NCBI GenBank assembly: GCA_934747885.1 | Contig: CAKVHE010000001.1 | Location: 364,052 to 428,051, forward strand | DNA from: an uncultured Clostridia bacterium | GTDB lineage: Bacteria; Bacillota; Clostridia; Christensenellales; UBA1242 | Direction: 5' to 3' | DNA length: 64,000 bases | Shown here: piece by piece, positions 5,884-63,922 of the stretch | How the letters are laid out: every line of letters begins with the position of its first letter | How positions within the stretch are numbered: position 1 is the first letter of the stretch | The notes under the pieces: generated by a model | The model's input: only the letters and a program-made list of their open reading frames with translations | The model's database searches: none | What the model was told of the DNA's origin: nothing | Program-made: the position numbers and the translations under genes

Positions 5884-6682
5884 TATACGCCCTCACTGTT
5901 TGATTTAATTCCTTCTTTTTTTTATGATCCAAAATATATAGCACGATTAGCAAAGTTAGCCCCGCCACTACCATTAGGCCGGCAATAAGTTGCGACATTG
6001 CCACATTGCCTACCTTGTAAACAAATTCGGCTTGTCTGCGCGTTTCTAAGAAAAACCTTATGGTGCCATAATAAATTAGGTAGGTGCCAAGCACAATTCC
6101 GCGCTTTTTCTTAAAGGTATAAAGCAAAGTTACCAATAGTGCAAAGCCAATCAAATTTAACACAAACTCATAAAAGAACAATGCTTCGTACCATTCGCCG
6201 CCAATTTGAACGGCAAGCGGAAACCACTGCAAACTTTCGTCCAAAATCTCTTTGCCGTATACCTCACCATTAAAATAGTTACCCCAGCGACCAATTGCCT
6301 GTCCCAAAATAACTAGCGGTGCCAAAATATCGGCAAGGCGAAAAAAATCAAGTTTTTTAAAGTGGCAATAAACAACAAGACCAATTGTGCCACCAACCAG
6401 CGCGCCCAAAATGCTAAGTCCACCGCCCTTAAAATCAAAATAATCGGCAAGCGTTAAATTGGGCTCAAAAATTACGGCAAACAAACGCGCCATAAATATG
6501 GCAGACGGTAAAAGCACCAGAACCAAATCGTAAGGCAACGATTGATCAAAACCGCGCTTTTTGCAAAAAAACATTAAAATAAGAAAATCTAAAATTATGG
6601 CGGAAGTTATAATAATTCCGTACCAATATATATCTATGCCAAAAAGCGTAAACGCTACTTTGCTTATCAGTAAGTTTTTCAT
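5861..6682 (-). CDS. lgt: Prolipoprotein diacylglyceryl transferase
   Basis: A 273 aa polytopic membrane protein. The motifs GIDIYWYGIII and GRWGNYFNGEVYG are typical of Lgt. Confidence 0.85.
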   Translation of the reverse strand: MKNLLISKVAFTLFGIDIYWYGIIITSAIILDFLILMFFCKKRGFDQSLPYDLVLVLLPSAIFMARLFAVIFEPNLTLADYFDFKGGGLSILGALVGGTIGLVVYCHFKKLDFFRLADILAPLVILGQAIGRWGNYFNGEVYGKEILDESLQWFPLAVQIGGEWYEALFFYEFVLNLIGFALLVTLLYTFKKKRGIVLGTYLIYYGTIRFFLETRRQAEFVYKVGNVAMSQLIAGLMVVAGLTLLIVLYILDHKKKKELNQTVRAYNGQDESK

Positions 6683-11929: not shown

Positions 11930-13455
<1,526 letters not shown>

Positions 13456-49878: not shown

Positions 49879-50931
49879 ATGGGACTATTATCCAAAAACT
49901 TAACTTTAAAAATTGTGGAATGGCAAGACACCACCTCAAACACCATGGTGTACAAATTCCCTATGGACGGCAGAAAACTCTTTTATGGTTCAAAATTAAC
50001 CGTACGTGAATCACAAGTTGCCGTTTTTGTAAACAAAGGTAAAATTGCCGACGTATTTACCCCTGGTATGTACAGTTTGCACACTCAAAACTTACCAATT
50101 TTGTCTAGCCTTTTGGGCTTGCCTTACGGCTTTAAATCGCCTTTCTTTGCCGATGTATACTTTGTAAACACCAAACAATTTACCAACCAAAAATGGGGCA
50201 CAACCAACCCTATTACCATGCGAGATAAAGAGTTTGGCCCAATTCGCTTGCGCGCTTATGGTACTTTTTCGTTTAAAGTTACCGACGCCGGCACTTTTAT
50301 GAAAGAAGTATTTGGCACAAATAGTGAATTTTCTACCGAATCTATTGTTGGTCAACTAAAAAGTATGGTAATTGCCGGCATCAGCGACACCATTGCCGAA
50401 AGCAAAATCTCGGCTCTTGACCTTGCCTGCAACCTACTTGAATTTAATGACGTTGTAAAGAATAATCTTAAAGAAATGTTTGAAAAACTTGGTCTTGGCC
50501 TAACAAACTGCATTATTGAAAACGTTTCGTTCCCAGAAGAAGTAGAAAAAGCCATCGACAAACGCTCATCTATGGGCGTGCTTGGCGACAAAATGGACGA
50601 CTACGTAAAATTCCAGTCGGCCGAAGCCATTCGCGATGCCGCTAAAAATCCGGGCGTTGCTGGCATTGGTACACAAATTGGCACCGGTATGGCACTTGGT
50701 GAAATGGTTAGAGATGCTATGGCACCAAAAACTGCAACCGCAAAAACCGAGACCACTCAAACTGCAACCAAAGAATGCCCAAAATGCAAGGCTCAAAACA
50801 AACCTCGCGCAAAATTCTGCTCAGAATGCGGCGCAAAATTTGATGAAGAAAAGTTTTGCCCAGAATGCGGCGCAAAAGTTTCTAGCCGTGCTAAATTCTG
50901 CCCAGAATGCGGAACCAAAGTTGCAAAATAA
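49879..50931 (+). CDS. SPFH/band-7 domain protein (YdjI-like) with three C-terminal zinc ribbons
   Basis: A 350 aa product. The N-terminus IVEWQDTTSNTMVYKFP and VRESQVAVFVNKGK are typical of this COG4260-type family. The C-terminus reads CPKC..CSECG, CPECG and CPECG. Confidence 0.65.
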   Translation: MGLLSKNLTLKIVEWQDTTSNTMVYKFPMDGRKLFYGSKLTVRESQVAVFVNKGKIADVFTPGMYSLHTQNLPILSSLLGLPYGFKSPFFADVYFVNTKQFTNQKWGTTNPITMRDKEFGPIRLRAYGTFSFKVTDAGTFMKEVFGTNSEFSTESIVGQLKSMVIAGISDTIAESKISALDLACNLLEFNDVVKNNLKEMFEKLGLGLTNCIIENVSFPEEVEKAIDKRSSMGVLGDKMDDYVKFQSAEAIRDAAKNPGVAGIGTQIGTGMALGEMVRDAMAPKTATAKTETTQTATKECPKCKAQNKPRAKFCSECGAKFDEEKFCPECGAKVSSRAKFCPECGTKVAK

Positions 50932-51308
50932 CTTAATGTATTTCCTTTTTAACTACAACCAAAAAGATTTGGAACCTTCCAAGTCTTTTTATTTTACTCG
51001 CGGATCCAAGCAAAAACGGGCACAAGTTTGCAAAACTTGCTTGTGCCAAACAAACTTGCGCTTAAACTATTGGTTAAGGTGCGTGACGCCCTGCGGCTTT
51101 GTCACTGCGCAAAGCGTCTTTGCCCCACCCTGCACTGCAAATAAGACCACTAGCCAAAATTGGCTAAACCCGTTGACGCAAAAGCCAAAGACTTTAAAGC
51201 GGTGCATAAAATTAAAATTTTTTCAAAAACCCAAAAATTTCTATTGACAAAAGCACAAAAGTGGTATAAACTATTATAGTATTTTGGGAGATATCCCAAA
51301 CCCCTTTT

Positions 51309-51384
51309 GGAGGGTTAGCTCAGCTGGGAGAGCATCTGCCTTACAAGCAGGCGGTCGTAGGTTCGAGCCCTACACTCTCCACCA
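51309..51384 (+). tRNA. tRNA-Val (TAC)
   Basis: The acceptor stem is GGAGGGT/ACTCTCC and the D-arm is GCTC-AGCTGGGA-GAGC. The anticodon arm TCTGC-CTTACAA-GCAGG gives anticodon TAC. The T-arm is GTAGG-TTCGAGC-CCTAC. CCA is encoded. Confidence 0.9.
51338..51384 (+). repeat. attL core (3' 47 nt of the intact tRNA-Val)
   Basis: gccttacaagcaggcggtcgtaggttcgagccctacactctccacca is identical to 59611-59657. Confidence 0.9.
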
Positions 51385-51519
51385 TAAAACGCAAGGAAAT
51401 TCCTTGCGTTTTTGTTATTTTGGGGTAGTTTATTCCAAATGGCAAAAAACGCCTTTTTAGCCCTATTTTGTGCAATTTTAAGGGTACGATTAAGGGTATA
51501 AATAAGGGTACGCTATAAG

Positions 51520-52602
51520 TTAGTCAAGTTTAGCAAGTTCTTCACGCTCAAACTCTGATTGAATATCACCGTAGATATCGCTTGTTATCTTAATTGAGCT
51601 GTGCCCTACCCATTTTTGTATGGTGGTTAATTTTATTCCTTTTTCAATGCATCTTGTTACGAAGGTGTGTCTTAGTGAGTGAATTGTTATTTTTTCAAAG
51701 CCCAATTCTTGGCATATCATTTTAAATTCCTTTTGAACTTGACGCTCGTTAAAATCAAAAGGAATTTCTTTTTTGTCTATGAGGTTTAATACATTATCAT
51801 TTACCGGTATTGTTCGGTTGGCACTTTTTGTTTTGGTTCCGTTTATATGTATGGTCTTGTTGTCGTAATCTACATCAGACAGCTTTAAATTAAGTGCCTC
51901 ATTTAGTCGCGCGCCAGTGTTTAAGTAAAAGTAGAAAAGGTTTTTGTATTTATTGTTGCTTTTATCCAAATAATTTGTTAGTTGGTTTTGTTGCGCGCGT
52001 GTTAGTGCTTTTCCTTTTTCACCATTATATTTTTTAATCACGATTTTTTGCATTGGGTTATTAGCAATATGCTCCGGCACCGCTTTGCTTAAACAATCGT
52101 TTAGATGTATGTACACCAAAGTTTTTGTACGTTCTTTACCAATAATACCATTTAGAAGATTTTGTATCACATCTTCCGTAAGCCTATTTAATGCGATATT
52201 GCCAATTTGGGGCAATATATACTTATTAAAGCTATTAGTTATAAGTTTTAAACTTTTCGGCTTTAAAATAGGCGTTTTGTATTTTTTAAGCCACAATTGG
52301 TACCAATCACACAGTTTAATTGTGTCTAAGGTTTGCACCACTTGTGGCTTTTTGCGCTTATTATATTTTGCCCTAAGCGCGCTTTGTGTTCTTGCATATA
52401 AACTGGTTTGCTTACCGTTACTATAGTAGCGAAGTTCGTACAAACCATTTTTTCTTTTTCGTATAGTTGTATTTTTTATTGTCATTATAATTTCATCGGC
52501 TTCTTTGCAACTATCTCTTAAACCTCTTAAAAATTCCGTAACTGCTATATTTATGTTAGTAATATATGTAATTTGTTCAGCTTGTTTCTCGCACAAACCC
52601 AA
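51520..52602 (-). CDS. int: Tyrosine recombinase / phage integrase
   Basis: The C-terminal catalytic region carries ARLNEAL, HSLRHTFVTRC and WVGHSSIKITSDIYGDI (R..HxxR..Y). It lies adjacent to attL. A shorter start at MTIKNTTIRKRKNG (ATG 52485) is possible. Confidence 0.85.
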   Translation of the reverse strand: MGLCEKQAEQITYITNINIAVTEFLRGLRDSCKEADEIIMTIKNTTIRKRKNGLYELRYYSNGKQTSLYARTQSALRAKYNKRKKPQVVQTLDTIKLCDWYQLWLKKYKTPILKPKSLKLITNSFNKYILPQIGNIALNRLTEDVIQNLLNGIIGKERTKTLVYIHLNDCLSKAVPEHIANNPMQKIVIKKYNGEKGKALTRAQQNQLTNYLDKSNNKYKNLFYFYLNTGARLNEALNLKLSDVDYDNKTIHINGTKTKSANRTIPVNDNVLNLIDKKEIPFDFNERQVQKEFKMICQELGFEKITIHSLRHTFVTRCIEKGIKLTTIQKWVGHSSIKITSDIYGDIQSEFEREELAKLD

Positions 52603-52627
52603 GAAATTTTCTACAATGTTTTTTTCA

Positions 52628-52870
52628 TTATTCTTCTACCTTTGTCTCTTGTTTTTTGTTCTTACCTTTAATTTTGTCAATAAGTCCAAATTTTTTATTT
52701 ATATCAAATAAAGCAACTAAAACCCAAGGAATAATTGCTACACAAATATAAAAAGCCTTGGCGTTAAATTTGTCGTTTATGTACCAAATTATTTTAGTTC
52801 CAAATTCAAAGCCAACATATTGAAATAATATAACAAAAATGTTTCTTAACCAATAATTTATTTTTTCCAT
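52628..52870 (-). CDS. Small two-TM membrane protein (prophage, function unknown)
   Basis: An 80 aa product starting at MEKINYWL after AAGGAGAA. It lies between the XRE repressor gene and int. Confidence 0.5.
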   Translation of the reverse strand: MEKINYWLRNIFVILFQYVGFEFGTKIIWYINDKFNAKAFYICVAIIPWVLVALFDINKKFGLIDKIKGKNKKQETKVEE

Positions 52871-52880
52871 AATTTTCTCC

Positions 52881-53192
52881 TTAGTTTTGACTTGCAAGCA
52901 GACCCGACATATAAGCAACTGCTTTTATTAGATTTATCTGGTTTAGTTCTTTTAGTAAGTTTATTGCACTTGTCTGCTCTGGATTTAAATAACCAAAGTC
53001 GTTTTGCCATTCTCTACCAACGAGAAAATCTAGCGAAACATTATAATAATCTGCTAACTTTTTAAGAGTTTCTAAATTTGGTTCGCTTGTTTCTCTTTCG
53101 TAACCGTTATAAGTAGAATTGGCAACATTCAATAATTGAGCTATTTCGTATTGATTTTTAGAGTTTTCAATCCTTAATTTTTTTAAATTCAT
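52881..53192 (-). CDS. XRE-family HTH repressor (cI-like)
   Basis: MNLKKLRIENSKNQYEIAQLLNVANSTYNGYERE is a typical HTH_3 segment. A GGAGGTG RBS is present. The promoter is TTGAAA (53246-53241), N16, TATAAT (53224-53219). Confidence 0.8.
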   Translation of the reverse strand: MNLKKLRIENSKNQYEIAQLLNVANSTYNGYERETSEPNLETLKKLADYYNVSLDFLVGREWQNDFGYLNPEQTSAINLLKELNQINLIKAVAYMSGLLASQN

Positions 53193-53264
53193 TTTTTTTA
53201 GCACCTCCTATGCCTTTAATTATAAGGAATTTTAAAAAATTTTCAAGATAAGTATATTTTTTGT

Positions 53265-53294
53265 TTTACATTTACGATTTAATCGTGTTATAAT
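53265..53294 (+). promoter_or_regulatory. Rightward early promoter with an embedded palindrome (candidate operator)
   Basis: The layout is TTTACA (53265-53270), N18, TATAAT (53289-53294). The inverted repeat ACGATT-T-AATCGT (53274-53286) lies in the spacer. The promoter is divergent from the XRE gene. Confidence 0.5.
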
Positions 53295-53335
53295 ACAACC
53301 ACCTGCGAGATGCTCGTACAAAAAAGGAGTTATTT

Positions 53336-53527
53336 ATGAAGAAAAAAAGAAAAATTTATGTTTATTTAATTACTAGAAATGATAACTATCAATTACCATT
53401 GGGCTGTTTTGACACAATCAAACAGTGCGCAACATTTTTAAATACATTACCAATTACTTGCGCCCAATCTGTCTATCGAAAAACAGCAGTTAGAGGCGAA
53501 TATCTAATTTTTAAAGTTAAAATTTAG
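53336..53527 (+). CDS. Small basic protein, first rightward gene (Cro/excisionase-like position)
   Basis: A 63 aa product with an AAGGAG RBS. I recognise no motif. Confidence 0.45.
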   Translation: MKKKRKIYVYLITRNDNYQLPLGCFDTIKQCATFLNTLPITCAQSVYRKTAVRGEYLIFKVKI

Positions 53528-53537
53528 GGTGGTAAGT

Positions 53538-53675
53538 ATGGACATTAAAAAAATCAAATATGTGGTTATAACCAACAAATCAATTTATTATTTTGATAAT
53601 TTTAGCGATTATAAGCAAAAAGTTTATTGTTTGGCTGTTTTATATATCCCTTTTATTAGTTTTAGAAAAATTTAA
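53538..53675 (+). CDS. Possible 45 aa ORF
   Basis: My own translation gives MDIKKIKYVVITNKSIYYFDNFSDYKQKVYCLAVLYIPFISFRKI. The RBS is weak (GGGTGG). The 3' half is encoded by copy 1 of the 74 bp repeat, so the coding status is doubtful. Confidence 0.25.
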   Translation: MDIKKIKYVVITNKSIYYFDNFSDYKQKVYCLAVLYIPFISFRKI

Positions 53676-53678
53676 ATG
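53605..53678 (+). repeat. 74 bp intra-element direct repeat, copy 1
   Basis: The sequence is gcgattataagcaaaaagtttattgtttggctgttttatatatcccttttattagttttagaaaaatttaaatg. It differs at 3 positions from 54151-54224. Confidence 0.9.
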
Positions 53679-53809
53679 CTGACTTCACTAACTACAATGA
53701 AGAACATAACATTTTGCAATACTGGAAGACAACAGTGTCAAAAATTGTATTGATAAGGTTTCATTCCTTTATCGCAAAAAGAAATTGAAGAATTAGGAGA
53801 TATATTTTA

Positions 53810-54118
53810 ATGAAGAATAAACAATTTTTTGGTTTATGTTCTTATTACATATATAAAGTTAAAATCAAATATCGTAGTCATTATTACTGTTTCACTGATT
53901 TTGAAGGTGATGGTGTTTTTGAAAATGACAATAGTGTTAAACTAAAAACATTAAGTGGAGTTGAACTATTAAAAATGTTTTCTGAACACTTAATTGATAA
54001 AGAATTATGGGATTTTACAACGGATGGTAAAACTTTTCATTTTGGAATGTTTACACCAACAAATGGTTCGACCCGTGATTTTGATTATACAATTTTAGAA
54101 GAAAGGTATGGTAAATAA
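53810..54118 (+). CDS. Hypothetical prophage protein
   Basis: A 102 aa product with a TAGGAGA RBS. Confidence 0.5.
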   Translation: MKNKQFFGLCSYYIYKVKIKYRSHYYCFTDFEGDGVFENDNSVKLKTLSGVELLKMFSEHLIDKELWDFTTDGKTFHFGMFTPTNGSTRDFDYTILEERYGK

Positions 54119-54150
54119 TTATGGAAGAATTTATAAATAGTTCTGACTTT

Positions 54151-54224
54151 GCGACTATAAGCAAAAAGTTTATTGTTTAGCCGTTTTATATATCCCTTTT
54201 ATTAGTTTTAGAAAAATTTAAATG
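54151..54224 (+). repeat. 74 bp intra-element direct repeat, copy 2
   Basis: See the entry for 53605-53678. This copy ends at the start region of the next gene. Confidence 0.9.
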
Positions 54225-54254
54225 GTGGCGACCACATACGCAAAGGAGAAAACT

Positions 54255-54548
54255 ATGGAAAAAACAAAAAATTATGAATTAAAGGAAAACGAAATTGTTC
54301 GCAAGGCATATTACCTTGGTCACAAAAAAGTTCAAGGCAAAAAAGACCCGTCTAAGCAATTTTGTTTTGTAGACTTGCTTTTCGTAAACAATATCGGACT
54401 AGAAAATGAATATCACACAATCACATCCGCGTTTTGTGATATAGAAAACGAACCTCAAAACATTACTCGTTTGTCACAAGTAGATTGTTTGTTTGAACAA
54501 GGCGCAGACCCAACCCGTCCAGCACGCTTTGTTAAAATTTTAGGTTAA
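54255..54548 (+). CDS. Hypothetical 97 aa protein, in the position of an inovirus ssDNA-binding (gV-like) gene
   Basis: The start is taken at MEKTKNYELK after AAGGAGAA. The functional guess comes from gene order only. Confidence 0.35.
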   Translation: MEKTKNYELKENEIVRKAYYLGHKKVQGKKDPSKQFCFVDLLFVNNIGLENEYHTITSAFCDIENEPQNITRLSQVDCLFEQGADPTRPARFVKILG

Positions 54549-54557
54549 GGAGTTAAT

Positions 54558-54713
54558 ATGTTTGCAACAGTTTATCTAGCCAATATTTTCGCAATGGCCA
54601 CAGTCGTTTTAGTTTTTGTTTTAGTTGTTGGGCATAAGAAGAAAAAACAATTAAAAGAGTTATCAAAATTCGGCAATGTTTCGGAAAAAGACGAAACCCC
54701 AAACGCCGAATAG
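54558..54713 (+). CDS. 51 aa single-TM protein (minor coat-like)
   Basis: My own translation gives MFATVYLANIFAMATVVLVFVLVVGHKKKKQLKELSKFGNVSEKDETPNAE, preceded by an AAGGAG RBS. Confidence 0.5.
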   Translation: MFATVYLANIFAMATVVLVFVLVVGHKKKKQLKELSKFGNVSEKDETPNAE

Positions 54714-54740
54714 ATAAAAATTTTAAAGGGGGACACGCAA

Positions 54741-54956
54741 TTGAATACCGTTATCACTAATTTATTCAGTGGTTTTTCTGAAACCATTAAAGGTATGGCT
54801 GGCGGTTTGAAAACTGGGTTTCTTCAACTTTTTTACGAAGACCCAACCGCTACCGAAAAAGTTGTAAGTGAACTGGCACAATTCGGTTTTGTTATGGTCG
54901 GTGTGGCTATGGCAATTGGTATTGTCTATTCACTATTAAGACTAATCAAAGTTTAG
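54741..54956 (+). CDS. Candidate major coat protein (71 aa)
   Basis: The start is TTG after AAAGGGGGA. The sequence has an acidic middle (YEDPTATEKVVSE), a hydrophobic core (FGFVMVGVAMAIGIVYSLL) and a basic end (RLIKV). A strong terminator follows, as with Ff gVIII. Confidence 0.5.
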   Translation: MNTVITNLFSGFSETIKGMAGGLKTGFLQLFYEDPTATEKVVSELAQFGFVMVGVAMAIGIVYSLLRLIKV

Positions 54957-54964
54957 TCTTTAAT

Positions 54965-54992
54965 TAAAAAAGGGCTAATAAGCCCTTTTTTT
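54965..54992 (+). terminator. Intrinsic terminator after the candidate major coat gene
   Basis: aaaaaagggc-taataa-gcccttttttt forms a stem-loop followed by a T-run. Confidence 0.7.
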
Positions 54993-55004
54993 ATAGGAGA
55001 AATT

Positions 55005-56750
55005 ATGAAAAATTTTATCTTTTCCGTTTGTTTGGCGTTTTTTTTAGCTCTCGCTTCGTTTACAAGTGTGAGTTTATTAAATTTTAGAGTATCACAAGCA
55101 AAAGAAACCACTATTAAATTTGAAGATACTATAGTTACAACAGCTTATAACGATGGTTCTAACTATTATTTTGCTAAAAAAGGTAATATTAGTTATTCCG
55201 GAAGCACTGGCGGTTCATTGCTGTATGGTCTGAGCGAAAGTGAGTTTTTAAGCAATTTAACTCTTAGCTTATCTCAAACTTATAAATTATTAAATAAAAA
55301 TACTACCGTTACCTTGGATAACGCGACTTTTAGTATAAACAGTTTTAGTGTTACAAAGCAAGGTTTTAGTAGTGCTACAACTTACACTGTCAATTTTAAT
55401 ATAGATTATGAGATAATTCAAACCAAAGCAATTTTAGCTAGTAATACAAATTTTTTTGATAATTTAGAAGACGTAACCATTAAATTGGTATTTACTTCTG
55501 GCTTAAAAAGTGCCACCTGGACTGAAAGCACGGATGGTTTATCAATAACTATGGAAAATAAGCTATTTAATATTAGCTATTACGATTTTGAAGGCGGAAT
55601 TTTACTCTCAAGTGAAGACCTTGAATATTATATGGTTCCAACTTATCCTGTGACGCCAACCCGAAACGGCTATACTTTTCAAGGCTGGTCACAAACTATT
55701 GACCATATTACCGCAAATGTCATTATTTATGGAACCTGGCAAATACAAACTTTTACTGTCAGTTATTATGATTATGAAGGTGGAAGTTTATTAAAATCAG
55801 AAACTGTAAATTATGGCGATAATTCCACCGCCCCAGCCACGCCAACTCGCGCCGGACACGAATGGCTAGGCTGGTCAACCGCCGCTAATAATGTTACAGC
55901 TGATTTAAATATTTATGGTCTTTGGGAGAAAACTTTATTTAAAGTTGATTTTTACGACTTTGAAGGTGGTACTTTGTTACAATCTGATTATGTAGAAGCC
56001 GGCGCTATCCTTACCGCACCTAAAACTCCTGAACGCTATGGTTATATTTGGTTAGGCTGGTCTACAACCGACTATTTATCAGTCACTGGAGATTTGATAG
56101 TTTATGGAACCTGGCAAATAAAAACCTATAATGTTTATTTTTACGACTACGACGGTGGTAGTTTATTAAAAACAGAAACCGTAAATTATTGCGATGGCGC
56201 CACGGCCCCTATAACTCCAACCCGAACCGGCTACGAATGGTTAGGCTGGTCATGCGATTTTAATTACATTACTGGTGATTTAGTAGTTTATGGCACCTGG
56301 CAAGTTAAAACTTGTGTAATTTCTTTTTACGACTACGACGGCGGTAATTTATTAGCTACATCTATTTATAACTATGGTGCTAAAGTTATTTTGCCGGAAA
56401 CGCCAACCCGAACCGGCTATATTTGGCAAGGCTGGTCAAAAAATATTACTTATGCTACCGAAAATATGACCGTTTATGGACTTTGGGAAAAAGATTTGAA
56501 TTACTTTAATGGCTACGCAAAAGGCCTCGAAGACGGCTATAAAAATGGCTATAACGATTGTAAAAACACCTTAGACAACAGCGAAGCTAACAGTAAACTT
56601 AGCACTTTGATTTTTGCAATCTTTGACGCACCTTTTAATGTGGTGAGAAACGCCTTAAATTTTGAACTTTTCGGTATCAACCTTACTAACTTTATTTTGA
56701 CAATTTTTAGCCTGATTTTACTCGCTTGGGTAATTGGTAAATTGTTATAG
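55005..56750 (+). CDS. Secreted, C-terminally anchored repeat protein (candidate adsorption / gIII-like protein)
   Basis: The product is 581 aa. It has a signal peptide (ASFTSVSLLNFRVSQA), an N-terminal domain, five ~62 aa Listeria-Bacteroides-type repeats (TPTRTGYEWLGWS...VYGTWQ) and a C-terminal TM (LTNFILTIFSLILLAWVIGKLL). Confidence 0.6.
   Translation: MKNFIFSVCLAFFLALASFTSVSLLNFRVSQAKETTIKFEDTIVTTAYNDGSNYYFAKKGNISYSGSTGGSLLYGLSESEFLSNLTLSLSQTYKLLNKNTTVTLDNATFSINSFSVTKQGFSSATTYTVNFNIDYEIIQTKAILASNTNFFDNLEDVTIKLVFTSGLKSATWTESTDGLSITMENKLFNISYYDFEGGILLSSEDLEYYMVPTYPVTPTRNGYTFQGWSQTIDHITANVIIYGTWQIQTFTVSYYDYEGGSLLKSETVNYGDNSTAPATPTRAGHEWLGWSTAANNVTADLNIYGLWEKTLFKVDFYDFEGGTLLQSDYVEAGAILTAPKTPERYGYIWLGWSTTDYLSVTGDLIVYGTWQIKTYNVYFYDYDGGSLLKTETVNYCDGATAPITPTRTGYEWLGWSCDFNYITGDLVVYGTWQVKTCVISFYDYDGGNLLATSIYNYGAKVILPETPTRTGYIWQGWSKNITYATENMTVYGLWEKDLNYFNGYAKGLEDGYKNGYNDCKNTLDNSEANSKLSTLIFAIFDAPFNVVRNALNFELFGINLTNFILTIFSLILLAWVIGKLL
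55566..56495 (+). repeat. Five tandem ~186 bp coding repeats (Listeria-Bacteroides / Flg_new-type domain)
   Basis: The peptide repeats start FNISYYDFEGG, FTVSYYDYEGG, FKVDFYDFEGG, YNVYFYDYDGG and CVISFYDYDGG. Each ends in YG(T/L)W. Confidence 0.8.
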
Positions 56751-56758
56751 GAGCTCAT

Positions 56759-56974
56759 ATGAAATTATATGATTTTATTTTGAACTATTTTATAAGCATC
56801 TTTATTGATACAAAGGCACTTTCTACGCCAATTTCTTTTTTAAACTGTACGATTTTGGATGTTTTCAATATCTTATTTATTTGTAGTTTGTCTTTCGTGA
56901 TTATCTATTGTTTTATTATTTTACCTTTTAAATTTTTAAAACGAATTGCCGGAGGAACCAAACGTGCAAAATAA
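56759..56974 (+). CDS. 71 aa two-TM protein (minor coat/assembly-like)
   Basis: A hydrophobic small ORF in the operon, with a GGAGC-type RBS. Confidence 0.45.
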   Translation: MKLYDFILNYFISIFIDTKALSTPISFLNCTILDVFNILFICSLSFVIIYCFIILPFKFLKRIAGGTKRAK

Positions 56975-57389
56975 GTTTTTAATTTTTCTTCTTTGCTTTG
57001 TTTTTATAATTGGCGTTTTTACTTTTCAGGCAACAAACTATAATTTTAGCTTGGAGAGTTATTTAACCGATGTATCCAATTTGGACGAAGCACCGCAGTT
57101 TCCTAATTTCAAATTTACAGCGATTAACAAAGTAACTGACACGATTGAAGACCTTGACGAGTCTATAAGCGATACCAATAGTTTAATTAAGAAAGTATAC
57201 TATGGTATCCAAAAAATTTGGTTATATATAGGTTACGTTTTCGCTCTTTTGTATGATTTAGTTTACTGGATAATCAATCTTTGTGTTTATTTGGTAAAAA
57301 TGGTTATTTGGTTTATTAAACTAGTTTCTACTATTTTTATAAAGCCCAAAATTAGTGTCGACCAAAATTTTTACAATAATAATTGGTAG
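56964..57389 (+). CDS. 141 aa membrane protein (gVI-like position)
   Basis: The start is GTG 56964 after GGAGGA. There is an N-terminal TM and two C-terminal TM segments. Confidence 0.45.
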   Translation: MQNKFLIFLLCFVFIIGVFTFQATNYNFSLESYLTDVSNLDEAPQFPNFKFTAINKVTDTIEDLDESISDTNSLIKKVYYGIQKIWLYIGYVFALLYDLVYWIINLCVYLVKMVIWFIKLVSTIFIKPKISVDQNFYNNNW

Positions 57390-58382
57390 GTGACTATGAG
57401 TTTATTATTTATTATTATTGCTTTAGCCTTATTTTTTATTTGGCTATACTTTTACAAAATTAAATATGATACCTTAATTGTTTTTACTGGTACTATGGGG
57501 TCTGGAAAAGACGTCAGTACTGTAAGTCTTGGCTTGAAGCTTTTAAATAAAAACCGCCGCAAAGTTAACCGCCACAACCGCTGGCTTTGGCTTATAAACA
57601 AATTTAAAGACCCTGATAAAAAAGCTTGTAAAAAGCCCTTGCCAATTCTTTATAGCAATTACCCTATTAGACTTAAATTTACTCGCTCGCGGTTTTTTAC
57701 TTGGCTTTTAAATCGGTACTGGAATATGGCAAAAATCAATTATGAAGGCAGAGTTAAATACAATTGTCCTGAGTACGTCGACCGTTTAAAATTACAAGAA
57801 TTGAAAATTACTAGTGACTATATAAAAGGTTATTCTGAGTTCTCTACCGAATTGACCCCTTCACATTTACTTTTACAAAAAAAAGTAGTTGAAAAATCTG
57901 TTACTATTTTAGGAGAAATTGGAAGTTTCGCCAACCAGTTTGAGTACAACTATCCTAACGTACAAGGCGGACTTACCGAATTTATTAGGCTATACCGACA
58001 TTATACAAAAGGCGGTTATTTAATTGCAAATGACCAATCTAGCAGCAACATAGTAAAGCCAATTCGTTGTCGAATTCCGACCGTTTATAACTTAATGCAT
58101 TTTAAACGGTGGTTCTTTTTTTTCTATACCGTCAAAATAAGAGATATCTCTATTGGTGAGGACATTACAACTATTGAAGAAAATAATACCGAAGATAATA
58201 TGCGAACAAAATTTGGAATTTTACCGCTTGGAAAATATGATACTTATTGCTACTCAGAGCGTTATAATTCGGTACCTTTTGCACCGGAAAATGTCTTTAA
58301 TAAGTACAAACAAAATAATCTTATGCGTGTATCAAAAACTTTAGTAATACCAAAAACAACTGGTGAAACTCGCTATAAATAA
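57390..58382 (+). CDS. Zot / pI-like P-loop NTPase (candidate filamentous-phage assembly ATPase)
   Basis: The Walker A is FTGTMGSGKDVS. A Walker-B-like segment reads VTILGEIGSF. An N-terminal TM is present. The gene occupies the last position of the structural module. The assignment rests on motif and context, not on alignment. Confidence 0.5.
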   Translation: MTMSLLFIIIALALFFIWLYFYKIKYDTLIVFTGTMGSGKDVSTVSLGLKLLNKNRRKVNRHNRWLWLINKFKDPDKKACKKPLPILYSNYPIRLKFTRSRFFTWLLNRYWNMAKINYEGRVKYNCPEYVDRLKLQELKITSDYIKGYSEFSTELTPSHLLLQKKVVEKSVTILGEIGSFANQFEYNYPNVQGGLTEFIRLYRHYTKGGYLIANDQSSSNIVKPIRCRIPTVYNLMHFKRWFFFFYTVKIRDISIGEDITTIEENNTEDNMRTKFGILPLGKYDTYCYSERYNSVPFAPENVFNKYKQNNLMRVSKTLVIPKTTGETRYK

Positions 58383-58563
58383 CTTTATTATTTTTGCGAA
58401 TAGCCTTTAAAACTTTTGTTTTAAAGGCTATACACAACGGCGCAAAAATGCTTCAAGCTTTCAAAAAAAGTAACTCTTTTAGTAAAATTAAGTCGCAAGC
58501 CACTTGCTGACTGCAAATGCTGCAATTGCTTTGCGTTTATTCTCTTTTTTATATGCGGAGAGT

Positions 58564-58614
58564 GGGGCGGTGGCGGGAACGCCCCGCACCCCAGCGACCA
58601 CGCAAGTGGTCGCT
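58564..58614 (+). promoter_or_regulatory. GC-rich hairpin pair upstream of rep (candidate replication origin)
   Basis: The first stem is ggggcg/cgcccc (58564-58569 and 58580-58585). The second is a perfect 9 bp stem agcgaccac-gcaa-gtggtcgct (58593-58614). Both sit in an otherwise AT-rich element. Confidence 0.4.
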
Positions 58615-58649
58615 TCTGTATATATAATATAGAAACATTTGGGGTAAAT

Positions 58650-59534
58650 ATGTTAAAATATTCACAACTAAAAAGTTTAAAAAAATTTAGTTTGCAAACT
58701 GTTATACCAGCACTAGAAAAAGCTGGTTATAGCAAAAAAGCAACAATGCTATATTATTGCGGAACGCAAAAGCACTTGGCTCTTTGTCAAGGTTGTCACA
58801 GCGTCTACTTTAATGGCGCAAATACTTGCAAAGACCGATTTTGTCCAATTTGCAACAAAAAACGTAGTTTGCTATATCTTGCCAAAATTTACCCTATTCT
58901 GGCTGATTTGCTCGACAAGGGATATTATATCAATATCATTAACTACACCATCAAGGATACCGAAAATTTAAAGCAAGGCATAGATACGTTACAACGTTCT
59001 TTTAGAATGTTGACCCACGATGATAAAGTATACCGAAAAAAATATAAAGAGTCCTTTGTCGGAGGTATTAAGTCGTTAGAAATAAAGACCGGCAAAAACT
59101 CCGGTCTTTGGCATCCACACTTCCATAGCATAGTAGTTAAAAAGAAAAACACAAAAGACTTTGATTGGCTAAAGGAAGCTTGGGAAACTTGTACCAGCAA
59201 AATTGCTGGTACCAACGAAAAAATTGGTAGTGTTTGGTTAAAAGGTTTCAGTTCGAAAAACAAAACCAAGTTATTAAAGTCAGTTCTTGAAACTCTAAAG
59301 TATATAACCAAATTCGATTGGGATGTTACAGAAAAAGTTTCTGAACTTGTAGAAACTTTGTCAGGCGTTAGAACTATCAATACTTATGGTATTTTGCGAG
59401 GTCTCCAACCCGCCGAAAAAGATTTGGATAAATCTATTGAAGATATCACAAATATTGTTTGTAAAATTTGTGGATCCACAAATTTCGTTACTTTTGACGC
59501 TGAAAATGATTATATAAATATAGAAGATTTTTAG
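58650..59534 (+). CDS. rep: Rolling-circle replication initiator, pC194/pUB110 (Rep_1)-like HUH protein
   Basis: The zinc finger reads CQGCH...CKDRFCPICNKKR. The HUH motif is LWHPHFHSIVV and the catalytic Tyr motif is ETLKYITKF. Confidence 0.75.
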   Translation: MLKYSQLKSLKKFSLQTVIPALEKAGYSKKATMLYYCGTQKHLALCQGCHSVYFNGANTCKDRFCPICNKKRSLLYLAKIYPILADLLDKGYYINIINYTIKDTENLKQGIDTLQRSFRMLTHDDKVYRKKYKESFVGGIKSLEIKTGKNSGLWHPHFHSIVVKKKNTKDFDWLKEAWETCTSKIAGTNEKIGSVWLKGFSSKNKTKLLKSVLETLKYITKFDWDVTEKVSELVETLSGVRTINTYGILRGLQPAEKDLDKSIEDITNIVCKICGSTNFVTFDAENDYINIEDF

Positions 59535-59610
59535 AAAATTTTAAGGGTATAACAGATATAAAAAGCCTTAAACTCCTTTATTTTTCTAATGTTTTTAAAT
59601 TTTCTTTTAC

Positions 59611-59657
59611 GCCTTACAAGCAGGCGGTCGTAGGTTCGAGCCCTACACTCTCCACCA
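59611..59657 (+). repeat. attR core (displaced 3' fragment of tRNA-Val)
   Basis: This 47 bp stretch is identical to 51338-51384. It is followed by a hairpin terminator (aaaaaccaaacc-ttgc-ggtttggtttttt), plausibly the ancestral tRNA terminator. Confidence 0.9.
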
Positions 59658-59722
59658 AACAAAAACCAAACCTTGCGGTTTGGTTTTTTGTTTGTATTTT
59701 TCTTTTTAATTTTTTCGTTTTT

Positions 59723-59784
59723 CTTAATTTTTTTAAATTCATCTTTTTACCGCCTTTTCCGCCTTCAATTATACAGAATTTTAA
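59723..59784 (-). pseudogene. Relic of an XRE repressor 5' end plus its promoter (remnant of a related element)
   Basis: cttaatttttttaaattcat is identical to 53173-53192 and encodes MNLKKLR. The adjacent gccttcaattatacagaattttaa matches gcctttaattataaggaattttaa at 21 of 24 positions. The reading frame collapses after 7 codons. Confidence 0.55.
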
Positions 59785-59833
59785 GGTACTTGCCAATTTT
59801 AGCTAGTTATTAAGCAACTTAAACAAACTAAGT

Positions 59834-60772
59834 TTAAATCAAAAACAAAACTGCCAAAACAGCATAAACTATCAATTCTATAAATAATTTTATTTTTGCC
59901 TTTTTTAAGTTTGCGTTAATTTTTTCACGAATGGCACGACTTTTATAATTCTCGCCCATTTCAACTTCGGCAGTGTCTTTTATTTGCGAAAGGTCTTCGG
60001 TGGTTATGTCCTGACCCTTGCTCATATCGTAACCAATATATTTTTGCTTTAAGCCAAGTTCTCGGTATAGCCTATGATTGGCGCCCGACAACCCAACACT
60101 TAATAAAAATGCAACGGCAAACACAATCACACAAACCCATGGCGACAGCGCATACTCTTTTAAGCCGTAATCTATAATATTAAACTTAAACAAAATATAA
60201 TCCGCTGCTAACAAAATGATGCCTAAAAGCATAGAAACATTTAATGCTGGAACCCATTTGTAGGTACTTTTCTTTGTAACAATTTTGTCGCATTTTTGTG
60301 GCAAACTGGCAATTAAGTCTTTAATTCCATTTAACAATTTGTCAAACTCGGGCGAAGCATTGTCTTTTTCCGTCGATACCATTATTGTATCTGGTGTGAT
60401 TGAAAAATACACGCGTTCCTCGCTTCGTTGTGAACGATAATAACTATCTATGGTACTATGCTCATAATACAAAGCCGAATAGTCTATGTTAATTTTTTCC
60501 ACATCTCGCAAATTGTTTTTTAATTCGCCCAAGAAACTTTCAGCATCGGTGTAGGTTTCGGTATGTCCTTTGGTTTCCAAATTTAATGCAAGCATTGGTC
60601 TTGCTGGCAAAATTGTCTTTCTAAGTTTTAAACCTTCTACCTCATCTGTAGTGGTTAACAAGGGTTGCAAGTTGTCATATTCACGCTTTAAGTATAAATA
60701 GCGTCCAGCAATAATTTTTGTTAAAATCTCAATATTATCCACAGACAACTGTACATTTTTGATATAATCCAT
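59834..60772 (-). CDS. Membrane protein with an N-terminal soluble domain (hypothetical)
   Basis: A 312 aa product with a soluble N-terminal domain of about 170 aa, then two TM segments, a charged segment and a C-terminal TM. A GGAGAA RBS is present. Confidence 0.55.
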   Translation of the reverse strand: MDYIKNVQLSVDNIEILTKIIAGRYLYLKREYDNLQPLLTTTDEVEGLKLRKTILPARPMLALNLETKGHTETYTDAESFLGELKNNLRDVEKINIDYSALYYEHSTIDSYYRSQRSEERVYFSITPDTIMVSTEKDNASPEFDKLLNGIKDLIASLPQKCDKIVTKKSTYKWVPALNVSMLLGIILLAADYILFKFNIIDYGLKEYALSPWVCVIVFAVAFLLSVGLSGANHRLYRELGLKQKYIGYDMSKGQDITTEDLSQIKDTAEVEMGENYKSRAIREKINANLKKAKIKLFIELIVYAVLAVLFLI

Positions 60773-60933
60773 TGTTTTCTCCTAAGTTTGACTTTATTAT
60801 ATCTTAAAACAAAGTTCAGTGTCAAACAATAAATATAGGTTCGCAAGCCGCTCGCGCCGGTCGGCACAACTATACGCAATTTTTAGGTTTACAATTATTA
60901 TGTCGTTAAGTATAATAATATAAGGAGAAAATA

Positions 60934-61731
60934 ATGGACGAAAAGCAATTTATGAAAGTGGTTAGCGGTTCCGCAAAAAACCGCGCCCTAAACACGGCAT
61001 TAAGCGAAGACCAAATATTGGACAATATGTCCACCCTATCCTTGCTTAATGCAGAAGATTTTAAGGAAATAAACCCATCTGCACCTTTTGAATATGATGA
61101 TTTACCCCTGCCAGTTGGCAATTTACCCACAGTTAACTCTGGAACAAGTCAAGAAAACAAATATTCTCACACCATAAAAAAACAACTATTTAAGACCTTG
61201 GCTGAAATAAACAATACCCGTGCCGACCAAAAGACCCCTACCAACCACGAGCACCCCGGTGTGCTTATTGGTAAAAAGGGAGAAGCCGCGACTTACTGCG
61301 AACTAAAAAGTTGTGGCGAGGGACAAAAGCAGACCTGCAACTATGATTGGGACGAGATTGAAAAAATAATTAAACAAACAACCGAACCTACCCACCTCGC
61401 CCTATTTCATGCTCACCCAAAACCAACCGAAGGCACTACGCATAACACTTTGTTTAACAAATATCCCGACACTTTAAAATCTTTGGGCGTACGAGAAAAC
61501 GGGCTTAATCTATCACTTGCCGATGTTGCAACTTTGCAATATTTAAACTATCTAGTTTCTAATAGCAACAAACAACAACTTATTACCACTGAATCCATCG
61601 TTTTGATGCATAATGGCGAACTTATAGGCTTTAATACCACTCAAAATGGTCTTGTAAAAACCAGTCAAAACCAACTAACATTGCAAAAGACCGCCACCAG
61701 CGAGCAAAACGCCGAAGGCGAGGGTTTGTAA
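60934..61731 (+). CDS. Hypothetical protein with a possible JAB/MPN-like HxHP motif
   Basis: A 265 aa product with an AAGGAGAA RBS. LALFHAHPKP ... LSLADV resembles a JAMM motif, but the spacing is atypical. Confidence 0.4.
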   Translation: MDEKQFMKVVSGSAKNRALNTALSEDQILDNMSTLSLLNAEDFKEINPSAPFEYDDLPLPVGNLPTVNSGTSQENKYSHTIKKQLFKTLAEINNTRADQKTPTNHEHPGVLIGKKGEAATYCELKSCGEGQKQTCNYDWDEIEKIIKQTTEPTHLALFHAHPKPTEGTTHNTLFNKYPDTLKSLGVRENGLNLSLADVATLQYLNYLVSNSNKQQLITTESIVLMHNGELIGFNTTQNGLVKTSQNQLTLQKTATSEQNAEGEGL

Positions 61732-63322: not shown

Positions 63323-63922
63323 TTAGTTAGTTTCCTTTTTAAATGGTATGCCGTGCCCCGGATAACCCAATTTATAATTTATGCCATCTATAACTTTTAG
63401 CGATGCCAGCATCTCTTTTTCGCTTCCGCCCTTTAAATCCACCCTGCCGGTGGCAAAAGCAAAGCGAGTATCTCCCGTAAACAACGCGTCTTCAATTAAA
63501 AAACAGCCCGAATTGGGCGAATGACCCTTTGTTTCAAAGAACGTTACAGTTTCGTCGTTTACCTTGATTTTTGCCCCATTTTTTACCGTCACAAATCTGC
63601 TGGTGTCAAAACCCAGTTCCAAATTTAGCCAATGATTTTCCGTCCATTCGTTGCTATTTATGTTTGCCTTGCCATGTGCCGAAACATACACCGGACATTC
63701 GCTATTTTCTAGCACCGATTTAAGCCCCATAATGTGGTCAAAATGGATATGCGTTAACAAAATGGCATCAATAGTAAAGGCGCCATCGGCTATTCTTCTA
63801 TACGCTTGCAAAATTTTGGAAAAATCTGAACCGGCATCAACCAAAATGGTTGCGCTATCTGTAACCACCACATAAGTGTTTTGGCGCCACGGGTTGCCGG
63901 CAATTACTGTTGCAATTTTCAT
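63323..63922 (-). CDS. MBL-fold metallo-hydrolase
   Basis: A 199 aa product with LLTHIHFDHIMG, the HxHxDH motif. Confidence 0.8.
   Translation of the reverse strand: MKIATVIAGNPWRQNTYVVVTDSATILVDAGSDFSKILQAYRRIADGAFTIDAILLTHIHFDHIMGLKSVLENSECPVYVSAHGKANINSNEWTENHWLNLELGFDTSRFVTVKNGAKIKVNDETVTFFETKGHSPNSGCFLIEDALFTGDTRFAFATGRVDLKGGSEKEMLASLKVIDGINYKLGYPGHGIPFKKETN

Follow-up and report, generated by a model that had tools for sequence, protein, structure and literature searches.

We analysed a 64,000-nucleotide stretch of DNA from an uncultured Clostridia bacterium (GTDB lineage Bacillota; Clostridia; Christensenellales; UBA1242; GenBank assembly GCA_934747885.1, contig CAKVHE010000001.1, positions 364,052 to 428,051 of the forward strand), which is called the window below and in which positions are counted from the first letter. 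The interval 51338-59657 can be read, with a probability of about 85%, as an integrated temperate filamentous phage of the inovirus type (Tubulavirales) and of the monoderm-host kind, which resides in an uncultured gut Clostridia and is probably functional. The element is AT-rich and measures 8.27 kb between its two attachment cores. Its genome is small and holds a replication initiator, and scans of ten element proteins with Pfam and PHROGs gave no match to capsid, tail or lysis families, in keeping with the criteria by which inoviruses have been recognised (Roux 2019, PMC6813254). Portal and terminase families were not matched in these scans either, which agrees with the gene content claimed in a preliminary description of the same DNA made from its letters alone. 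The open reading frames (ORFs) listed there were all recovered at the same coordinates, and the motifs GTMGSGKD, HPHFH and LKYITK were all read in the translations.

The element is bounded by a duplication of the tRNA in which it sits. An intact tRNA-Val(tac) was located on the + strand by ARAGORN, and a repeat search found that 51338-51389 and 59611-59662 form a direct repeat with 96% identity over 52 nt, the leading 47 nt being exact. The exact part is the 3' part of tRNA-Val(TAC), as the preliminary description had it, and the 47-mer occurs exactly twice in the 64-kb window. Since an exact 47-nt repeat coincides with the 3' end of a tRNA, a chance origin is negligible. A tyrosine recombinase adjoins the intact tRNA, with the tRNA 3'-end repeat at the opposite boundary. 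The features at the two ends are as follows.

51309-51384, + strand: tRNA-Val(TAC), whose 3' 47 nt are the attL core (ARAGORN and repeat search)
51338-51384, no strand: attL core, 47-bp exact repeat (repeat search and core count)
51386-51412, + strand: phage-supplied terminator hairpin directly after the reconstituted tRNA (-15.6 kcal/mol, z -4.1)
59611-59657, no strand: attR core, 47-bp exact repeat (repeat search and core count)
59661-59688, + strand: original host tRNA-Val terminator, displaced to the right end (it adjoins the tRNA directly in two empty sites, on contigs L012 and L014)

After integration, tRNA-Val reads into the terminator at 51386-51412, which is missing from the empty sites of L012 and L014, and the old terminator lies beyond attR. 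Both the 3' end that tRNA-Val(TAC) has after the insertion and the terminator behind it come from the phage. The AT-richness described earlier was also seen: the GC content in 500-nt windows is 0.24-0.40 inside the interval as compared with 0.38-0.46 in the 7 kb to the left, and it is also low just right of the element, at 0.29-0.37 in the first 1.5 kb (59500-60999). A small difference was noticed in the host terminator, where the loop (59671-59678) is flipped with an unchanged stem and reads CCTTGCGG in the window and CCGCAAGG in L012 and L014.

Contigs of the same species, found by exact-sequence look-up of the flanking Band_7 protein and of a 312-aa protein, show that the site is not always occupied. 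In L012 (a 589-kb Hadza contig) and L014, the left flank is followed by the tRNA with a single core and then by the window's right flank with the host terminator, which is the empty tRNA-Val site that the preliminary description had proposed to look for; conspecific contigs with empty sites measure 110-589 kb. In L011 the insert is 100% identical to the window across the element, and L013, L017 and L023 carry variants with about 95% identity in the same tRNA-Val site. Occupied and empty sites alike have host flanks close to those of the window, with 98.3-98.9% identity on the left and 98.7-99.5% on the right. At least nine samples yielded the same junctions in independent assemblies. The tRNA-Val site is thus polymorphic within the species, being either empty or filled by variants about 5% diverged, and the interval is not a fixed, syntenic part of all relatives. 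The presence of several diverged variants at one site in different strains, with other strains empty, points to recent horizontal spread.

Related prophages use other tRNAs in the same manner. A scan of GTDB genomes for relatives, which did not recover the window's own species, gave seven prophages with a duplicated tRNA segment of 31-62 bp at their ends (Arg, Ser, Lys and Pro); the duplicated segment is the 3' end in six of the seven, and these elements span 4.9-8.9 kb. Four small related contigs (L005, L006, L007 and L009) were considered as circular genomes and rejected, since their ends do not overlap; L005 is a piece of the copy that is integrated in L004. Some conspecific strains carry a different insert, independent of the phage site. 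It lies between the Band_7 gene and tRNA-Val, corresponding roughly to window 50932-51308, and is about 2.2 kb long (L015 11054-13690 and L016 11054-13707), with a 552-aa ORF that has no Pfam match and is split into 348 and 195 aa in L016.

Similarity of the product of 57390-58382 to pI/Zot proteins had been set beforehand as the point on which the inovirus reading would stand or fall. Family, fold and tblastn evidence all point to Zot/pI.

57390-58382, + strand: Zot/pI-type morphogenesis ATPase with an N-terminal transmembrane (TM) helix, Walker A GSGKD and Walker B ILGE

Ninety homologues of the ATPase were found, two of them already annotated as PF05707, and Pfam Zot was matched by 11 of 32 aligned family members with a best E-value of 1.2e-8. 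None of the 32 matched the Pfam families FtsK (FtsK_SpoIIIE), TcpA or TraG, and no PhoH majority was seen among them in Pfam. A tblastn search against 50,697 phage records returned only the 'Zonula occludens toxin' genes of three small inovirus genomes, PQ006122 (1e-27), MT135295 and PQ006163, of which the two examined are circular. The AlphaFold2 (AF2) model has a pLDDT of 84.7, and its best PDB match in Foldseek is the N-terminal domain of Neisseria Zot (2r2a, E 7e-6), the next-best folds (KaiC, RAD51 and STIV2 B204) being at 1.6e-3 or worse; several of the top matches in BFVD carry the name Inoviridae Zot. The family profile also placed 2r2a first among PDB sequences, though with an E-value of only 0.12, and a single-sequence phmmer search of PDB sequences with the window's protein gave no match. 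When aligned by hhalign with the pI of Clostridium phage CAK1, the family profile gave a probability of 79% and an E-value of 1.6e-5. Hydrophobic and TM segments were called by Kyte-Doolittle. In the window's ATPase a hydrophobic segment at residues 1-26, modelled by AF2 as a helix at 2-20, precedes Walker A (residue 34); of the 32 family members, 29 have a TM segment on the N-terminal side of Walker A and none on the C-terminal side. A hidden Markov model (HMM) search of the full library at E<=1e-3 put the size of the clade at 684 representatives at 50% identity. One relative was found in IMG/VR, where the clade may be under-sampled. Short Zot-clade contigs of 3-4 kb were also seen in GTDB metagenome-assembled genomes labelled Nanosyncoccus, Bacteroidaceae, Phocaeicola dorei and Alphaproteobacteria (L037, L045, L049 and L052). 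These are probably mis-binned free phage contigs, and host calls from such bins are not trustworthy as a result.

The two nucleotide-binding motifs of the window's ATPase are unusual. In Walker A (GSGKD), Asp41 (codon 57510-57512) occupies the position where the family has Ser or Thr, and in Walker B (ILGE), Gly175 (codon 57912-57914) occupies the position where about 95% of the family has Asp. The two motifs were compared in about 240 family members. All six proteins with GKD lack the Walker B Asp and have Gly, Thr or Ser there, and about 146 of the 155 proteins with GK[S/T] keep it. The pairing of GKD with a non-Asp residue is kept across 27% protein divergence in P0002 and recurs in P0301, P0315 and P0319. 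That all six GKD members are without the Walker B Asp suggests a compensated change rather than decay, and the covarying substitutions may represent a compensatory relocation of the Mg2+ ligand. To our knowledge, a compensatory Walker swap of this type has not been described previously for Zot/pI ATPases.

The genes upstream of the ATPase have the layout of a filamentous-phage structural block.

54558-54713, + strand: 51-aa single-TM protein, minor-coat candidate (TM residues 1-28, then KKKK)
54741-54956, + strand: 71-aa major-coat candidate (acidic 33-44, TM within 41-71, basic C-terminus with R66 and K69)
54966-54991, + strand: intrinsic terminator after the coat gene (11-bp stem, U7, -14.5 kcal/mol)
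55005-56750, + strand: 581-aa adsorption-protein candidate (signal peptide, five Flg_new repeats at 5e-33, C-terminal anchor)
56759-56974, + strand: 71-aa TM protein in the gene-VI position (TM within 24-65; kept in L004, L006, L009, L029 and L031)
56946-57389, + strand: 141-147-aa membrane protein, candidate assembly partner (N-terminal TM and C-terminal hydrophobic region; conserved)

The 51-aa protein and both 71-aa proteins have one hydrophobic segment each, as expected from the short single-TM structural proteins that Roux 2019 used as a criterion, and the position of the 51-aa protein is that of the annotated putative minor coat of CAK1. The 71-aa coat-like protein is kept in 18 related loci, including bajarodino virus 71, and its gene does not differ between the window and L013. 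In this family an amphipathic N-terminus is combined with a conserved acidic patch (Y-x-DP), a single TM segment and a basic C-terminal tail, a layout that fits a major coat protein. Both the acidic/hydrophobic/basic arrangement and the strong terminator behind it had been pointed out before. The 581-aa protein has hydrophobic segments at 1-27 and 553-581, and across relatives its C-terminal 80 or so residues are kept while the body varies; the signal peptide, variable body and conserved C-terminal anchor form the layout of a pIII-type adsorption protein. No secretin family was matched in the Pfam and PHROGs scans of the ten proteins. In relatives, the 71-aa coat-like protein, the C-terminus of the 581-aa protein, the 71-aa and 141-147-aa proteins and Zot form a syntenic block, and the Rep and integrase in these relatives are unrelated or absent (a Viral_Rep in L007 and a 288-aa protein in L004). 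Since the block is kept alongside entirely different Rep and integrase genes, it is the core of the element and not its cargo. Two of the related prophages, L004 (6445-15139) and L006 (4356-6249), have core-adjacent genes with weak CD_NTase_C matches and a DUF2726 gene. In L004 a 5.7-kb core lies within an 81-bp direct repeat (6445-6525 and 12192-12271) and is followed by a second partial repeat. The extra genes of L004 and L006 could be defence-type cargo or could reflect tandem or partial duplication.

The replication module consists of an initiator, a structured noncoding region in front of it and a candidate single-stranded-DNA-binding (SSB) protein.

58650-59534, + strand: Rep_1-family HUH rolling-circle initiator with an N-terminal zinc ribbon (Rep_1 4.6e-21, Zn_Tnp_IS91 4.7e-6)
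58383-58649, + strand: hairpin-rich noncoding region, putative origin and/or packaging signal (single-stranded DNA fold, inverted repeat I1, conserved in L013)
54255-54548, + strand: SSB-like protein of 97 aa with a predicted oligonucleotide/oligosaccharide-binding (OB) fold, in the gene-V position (AF2 model and Foldseek)

The comparison of 58650-59534 with the Rep_1 profile gave 75.9 bits against a cutoff of 33.2, with HPHFH and LKYITK present in the translation. The tblastn matches of the Rep are the Reps of porcine Inovirus sp. and of CAK1 and also those of Gram-positive rolling-circle plasmids, 1418 plasmid records being matched. A 343-aa form of the Rep in L013 was rejected, as it is a TTG-started ORF extension through the origin hairpins and the real start is the ATG at 58650. 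Folded as single-stranded DNA, the hairpin-rich stretch noted in the preliminary description reaches -59.8 kcal/mol as compared with -31.8 kcal/mol for shuffled sequences (z = -8.1). One of its hairpin loops (58414-58417) is flipped between the window (CTTTTG) and L013 (CAAAAG) with an unchanged stem. The AF2 model of the 97-aa protein (pLDDT 88.6) shows a barrel of five beta strands, and its top 20 PDB matches in Foldseek are nearly all OB folds of the SSB/PriB type with TM-scores of 0.45-0.55. Only four close homologues of this protein were found.

The left part of the element holds a lysogeny module and, beyond it, an exchangeable region.

51520-52602, - strand: tyrosine integrase, 360 aa (Pfam Phage_integrase 1.6e-26 with Phage_int_SAM_3; phrog_1 4.9e-64)
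52628-52918, - strand: small single-TM protein, 80-96 aa (TM residues 51-75; present in the variants)
52881-53204, - strand: XRE-type repressor, RstR-like (HTH_3 2.4e-15)
53219-53294, no strand: divergent promoter-like pair, switch region (two opposite-strand sites)
53336-53675, + strand: two tiny ORFs, 63 aa and 45-48 aa (ORF list; region swapped in variants)
53602-54227, + strand: optional cassette, with a 102-aa ORF (53810-54118), between 80-bp direct repeats (repeat search)

The top NCBIfam match of the repressor is phage_RstR, the repressor family of CTXphi, at 1.1e-15 and below the cutoff, and the small TM protein had no family match in Pfam, PHROGs or NCBIfam. The back-to-back promoters claimed at the repressor correspond to two promoter-like sites, 53246-53219 on the - strand and 53265-53294 on the + strand, each matched at 11 of 12 positions. 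Between variants, no compared gene differs more than the repressor (83% identity), which is what an immunity region would lead one to expect. The first rightward ORF is 63 aa in the window as compared with 68 aa in L013, L017 and L023, and window 53267-53498 does not align with L013 13389-13631. This looks like an exchanged immunity region, in which case the variants would be heteroimmune. The 470-bp cassette (53679-54147) is present in the window and L011 and missing from L013, L017 and L023; it is flanked by 80-bp repeats (53602-53681 and 54148-54227) with 94% identity, and its 102-aa ORF has no family match. From this arrangement, the cassette was probably gained or lost through recombination between the repeats. 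Gene callers on relatives chose slightly later starts for several of the element's genes, giving 80 aa for the TM protein, 103 aa for the XRE protein, 97 aa for the SSB-like protein, 141 aa for the membrane protein and 328 aa for Zot.

The state of the element was assessed by the ratio of nonsynonymous to synonymous changes (pN/pS), measured by Nei-Gojobori counts between the window and the L013 variant. The overall pN/pS was 0.12 and all genes compared were under purifying selection, with values of 0.06 for the integrase, 0.07 for the SSB-like protein, 0.03 for the 141-aa protein, 0.08 for Zot, 0.05 for Rep and 0.36 for the repressor. Constraint on every compared gene, and the occurrence of empty sites alongside several variants within a single species, suggest an active or recently active phage.

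The host species belongs to the human-gut Clostridia and has been seen in the Hadza as well as in further cohorts. No other MetG is more than 75% identical to that of the host, and the named matches are 'Clostridia bacterium' at 58-60%. The preliminary description placed it in a sporeformer lineage, which is unsupported: the sole sporulation-like match is a SpoVB-like flippase far below the cutoff. Left of the tRNA, the gene of the Band_7/SPFH protein (49879-50931) ends in three tandem zinc-ribbon repeats, which are 37-nt DNA repeats at 50806-50923. To the right, 63323-63922 on the - strand encodes a 199-aa host protein with a metallo-beta-lactamase fold whose pre-computed Pfam assignments include PF23023 (Anti-Pycsar_Apyc1); the gene is kept in phage-free and phage-bearing strains and is therefore not part of the element.

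Among known systems, the element comes close to small circular gut genomes. In bajarodino virus 71 (PQ006122, 5276 bp, circular and deposited as Inoviridae), Zot is 35% identical over nearly its full length in a local tblastn and 43% over 172 aa in a database search, and has the same N-terminal TM segment. This virus also has a 71-aa coat-like protein and a C-terminal anchor of a large protein that are homologous to those of the element, whereas its coat gene lies downstream of Zot. A literature search on 'bajarodino' returned no paper. The porcine 'Inovirus sp.' (MT135295 and related records) shares Rep_1-type Reps with the element. These records are free circular genomes of about 4.5-8 kb; bajarodino virus 71 and MT135295, at 5.3-5.5 kb, have neither an integrase nor a repressor annotated. 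As compared with the small circular gut inoviruses, the element is enlarged to 8.27 kb by the optional cassette and by some 2 kb of lysogeny genes (integrase, TM protein and XRE repressor). Filamentous particles of Clostridium phage CAK1 (OX639564, 6557 bp) have been recovered in C. beijerinckii, and its genome is collinear with the circularised element in the order Rep, leftward regulator, SSB, small TM protein, major coat, receptor-binding protein, G6P-like protein and pI. The CAK1 Rep is 27% identical to that of the element (E 3e-7). CAK1 differs in having an extra FtsK-like gene and no annotated integrase, and its pI begins directly at Walker A without the N-terminal TM segment found in the element. 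By description, the element also resembles inovirus prophages of Enterocloster and Hungatella, which are 6.5-8.5 kb long, reside in gut Clostridia, and have direct repeats and a pI/Zot homologue; inovirus secretion was shown for the Enterocloster prophages in vitro and in mice (Burckhardt 2023, PMC10061712). The host here differs in that it belongs to an uncultured, deeply branching Clostridia lineage.

With Inoviridae of the CTXphi/Ff type, the element has in common a Zot-family ATPase, an RstR-like repressor (below the cutoff), a major coat gene with a terminator behind it, and an adsorption protein whose C-terminal anchor is conserved. It differs in that the pI TM segment is N-terminal and not C-terminal, that no pIV secretin gene was recognised, that its Rep belongs to the Rep_1 family, and that it uses its own tyrosine integrase at a tRNA where the CTXphi/Ff-type phages use the host XerCD at dif. 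The match to the Ff scheme proposed in the preliminary description thus extends to the gene order but not to the secretin or the pI topology. The lack of a secretin and of a C-terminal pI TM segment is consistent with a monoderm host. In the survey of Roux 2019 (PMC6813254), thousands of inovirus elements were catalogued, among them 582 prophages in genomes whose direct repeats lie in a tRNA or adjoin an integrase; tyrosine recombinases and rolling-circle Reps were found to be exchanged across families, some of the six candidate families were confined to monoderm hosts, and an 'atypical' pI with an N-terminal TM domain was present in about 30% of inovirus species. The element matches both the atypical pI topology and the pattern of module exchange. 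It is therefore an example of an already catalogued kind and not a new kind, and the novelty attributed earlier to an integrase-dependent, tRNA-targeting inovirus was overstated, given this survey and the secretion reported from gut Clostridia (PMC10061712).

Several observations weigh against reading the interval as a functional filamentous phage. The window's Zot protein by itself had no match over threshold in Pfam, PHROGs or NCBIfam, so that its assignment rests on family, structure and tblastn; the earlier call of the GTMGSGKD protein as pI/Zot holds through family and structure, with no direct Pfam or PHROG match and an atypical Walker A. The Foldseek E-values of the SSB-like protein are weak (0.02-0.15, and 0.02-0.07 among the top 20), and in BLASTP the coat and SSB of CAK1 have no pairwise similarity to the element's candidates. 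CTTGATA is the canonical nick sequence of pC194-type replicons, and it occurs on neither strand of 51338-59657. Of the pC194-type HUH Rep of the preliminary description, the Rep_1 family and the HUH and Tyr motifs stand while the nick sequence does not. No excisionase was recognised in the element. The exact attP junction was found neither in IMG/VR nor in JGI metagenomes, although these negatives say little because a conserved phage-origin 50-mer is absent from both too; contigs retrieved through the integrase or the coat protein were all integrated copies or fragments. Excision, single-stranded DNA and particles are predictions from the gene content. Lastly, both Mg-ligand positions of the ATPase are non-canonical, so that an assembly-dead enzyme is possible.

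This last point is the basis of the alternative that we take most seriously, although we judge it improbable: a cryptic inovirus-derived prophage that can still integrate, excise or replicate but makes no particles, its ATPase having lost both canonical Mg2+ ligands. The Walker A and Walker B replacements are as such an element would have them, and neither an attP junction nor a free circular contig was found. However, Zot is under strong purifying selection between variants, the GKD/non-Asp pair persists in P0002, P0301, P0315 and P0319 and looks tolerated or compensated, the remaining genes are all intact and constrained, and the spread of diverged variants over occupied and empty sites appears recent. 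Much less credit is due to an integrative rolling-circle plasmid or mobilisable element without a virion, in which Rep_1 would serve for replication or as a relaxase, the P-loop protein would be an ATPase for coupling or partition, and the membrane proteins would be carried as cargo. Rep_1 is chiefly a plasmid family, as the plasmid records show, and an integrase with a tRNA attachment site is generic to genomic islands. Against this, the ATPase family was matched to Zot, with no match to FtsK, TcpA or TraG, and the block of coat-like protein, anchor, small TM proteins and Zot is kept in relatives whose Rep and integrase are wholly unlike those here. Circular genomes of about 5.3-5.5 kb deposited as Inoviridae consist of this block, and CAK1, with filamentous particles reported, has the same gene order and a related Rep. 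That the interval is a fixed ancestral feature or an assembly artefact and not mobile is scarcely credible: nothing favours it except that the data are metagenome-assembled, the identical junctions were recovered in independent assemblies, and the empty sites in long conspecific contigs refute it.

If the element is a temperate filamentous phage as proposed, its cycle may be pictured as follows. The RstR-like XRE repressor would keep the rightward operon off through the divergent promoter pair, and upon derepression the integrase would excise a circle of about 8.2 kb. Rep would then nick an origin in or near 58383-58649 and drive rolling-circle synthesis of the + strand, and the single-stranded DNA would be coated by the OB-fold protein. 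At the membrane, the N-terminally anchored ATPase and the 71-aa and 141-aa membrane proteins could exchange the SSB for the 71-aa coat, and the filament would be extruded without lysis and without a secretin. Its ends would be capped by the 51-aa protein and by the 581-aa Flg_new-repeat protein, whose repeat domain may bind the surface of the next host.

What is known of inovirus organisation and integration is unchanged by this locus. Experimental work on filamentous phages of Gram-positive bacteria is scarce: a 2026 preprint (10.64898/2026.07.11.737922) lists CAK1, B5 and Philemon and no others, to which the Enterocloster prophages (PMC10061712) can be added. The element is a clean and complete example, with exact att sites, a natural empty site and ready-made attP/attB primers. 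Specific to it are the clean polymorphic att system, the adsorption protein with Flg_new repeats, the 470-bp cassette between 80-bp repeats, the covarying Walker substitutions and a Zot clade near-absent from IMG/VR (one hit). The variants that co-circulate at one tRNA open the polymorphism of the immunity region to study, and the candidate receptor-binding protein is built of Listeria-Bacteroides (Flg_new) repeats. A wider proposal, which we put forward tentatively and regard as unlikely, is that two things hold together: that there is a large clade of gut-Clostridia filamentous phages without a cultured member, comprising about 700 clusters at 50% identity and perhaps of family rank, with an N-terminal-TM pI, the 71-aa coat family and near-absence from IMG/VR; and that in a sublineage of it the assembly ATPase functions with a rewired Mg2+ site, where Walker B has given up its carboxylate (Asp to Gly, Thr or Ser) and the residue that follows the P-loop lysine has gained one (Ser or Thr to Asp). 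If true, this would provide a natural experiment on P-loop catalysis together with a tractable temperate inovirus for an uncultured human-gut lineage.

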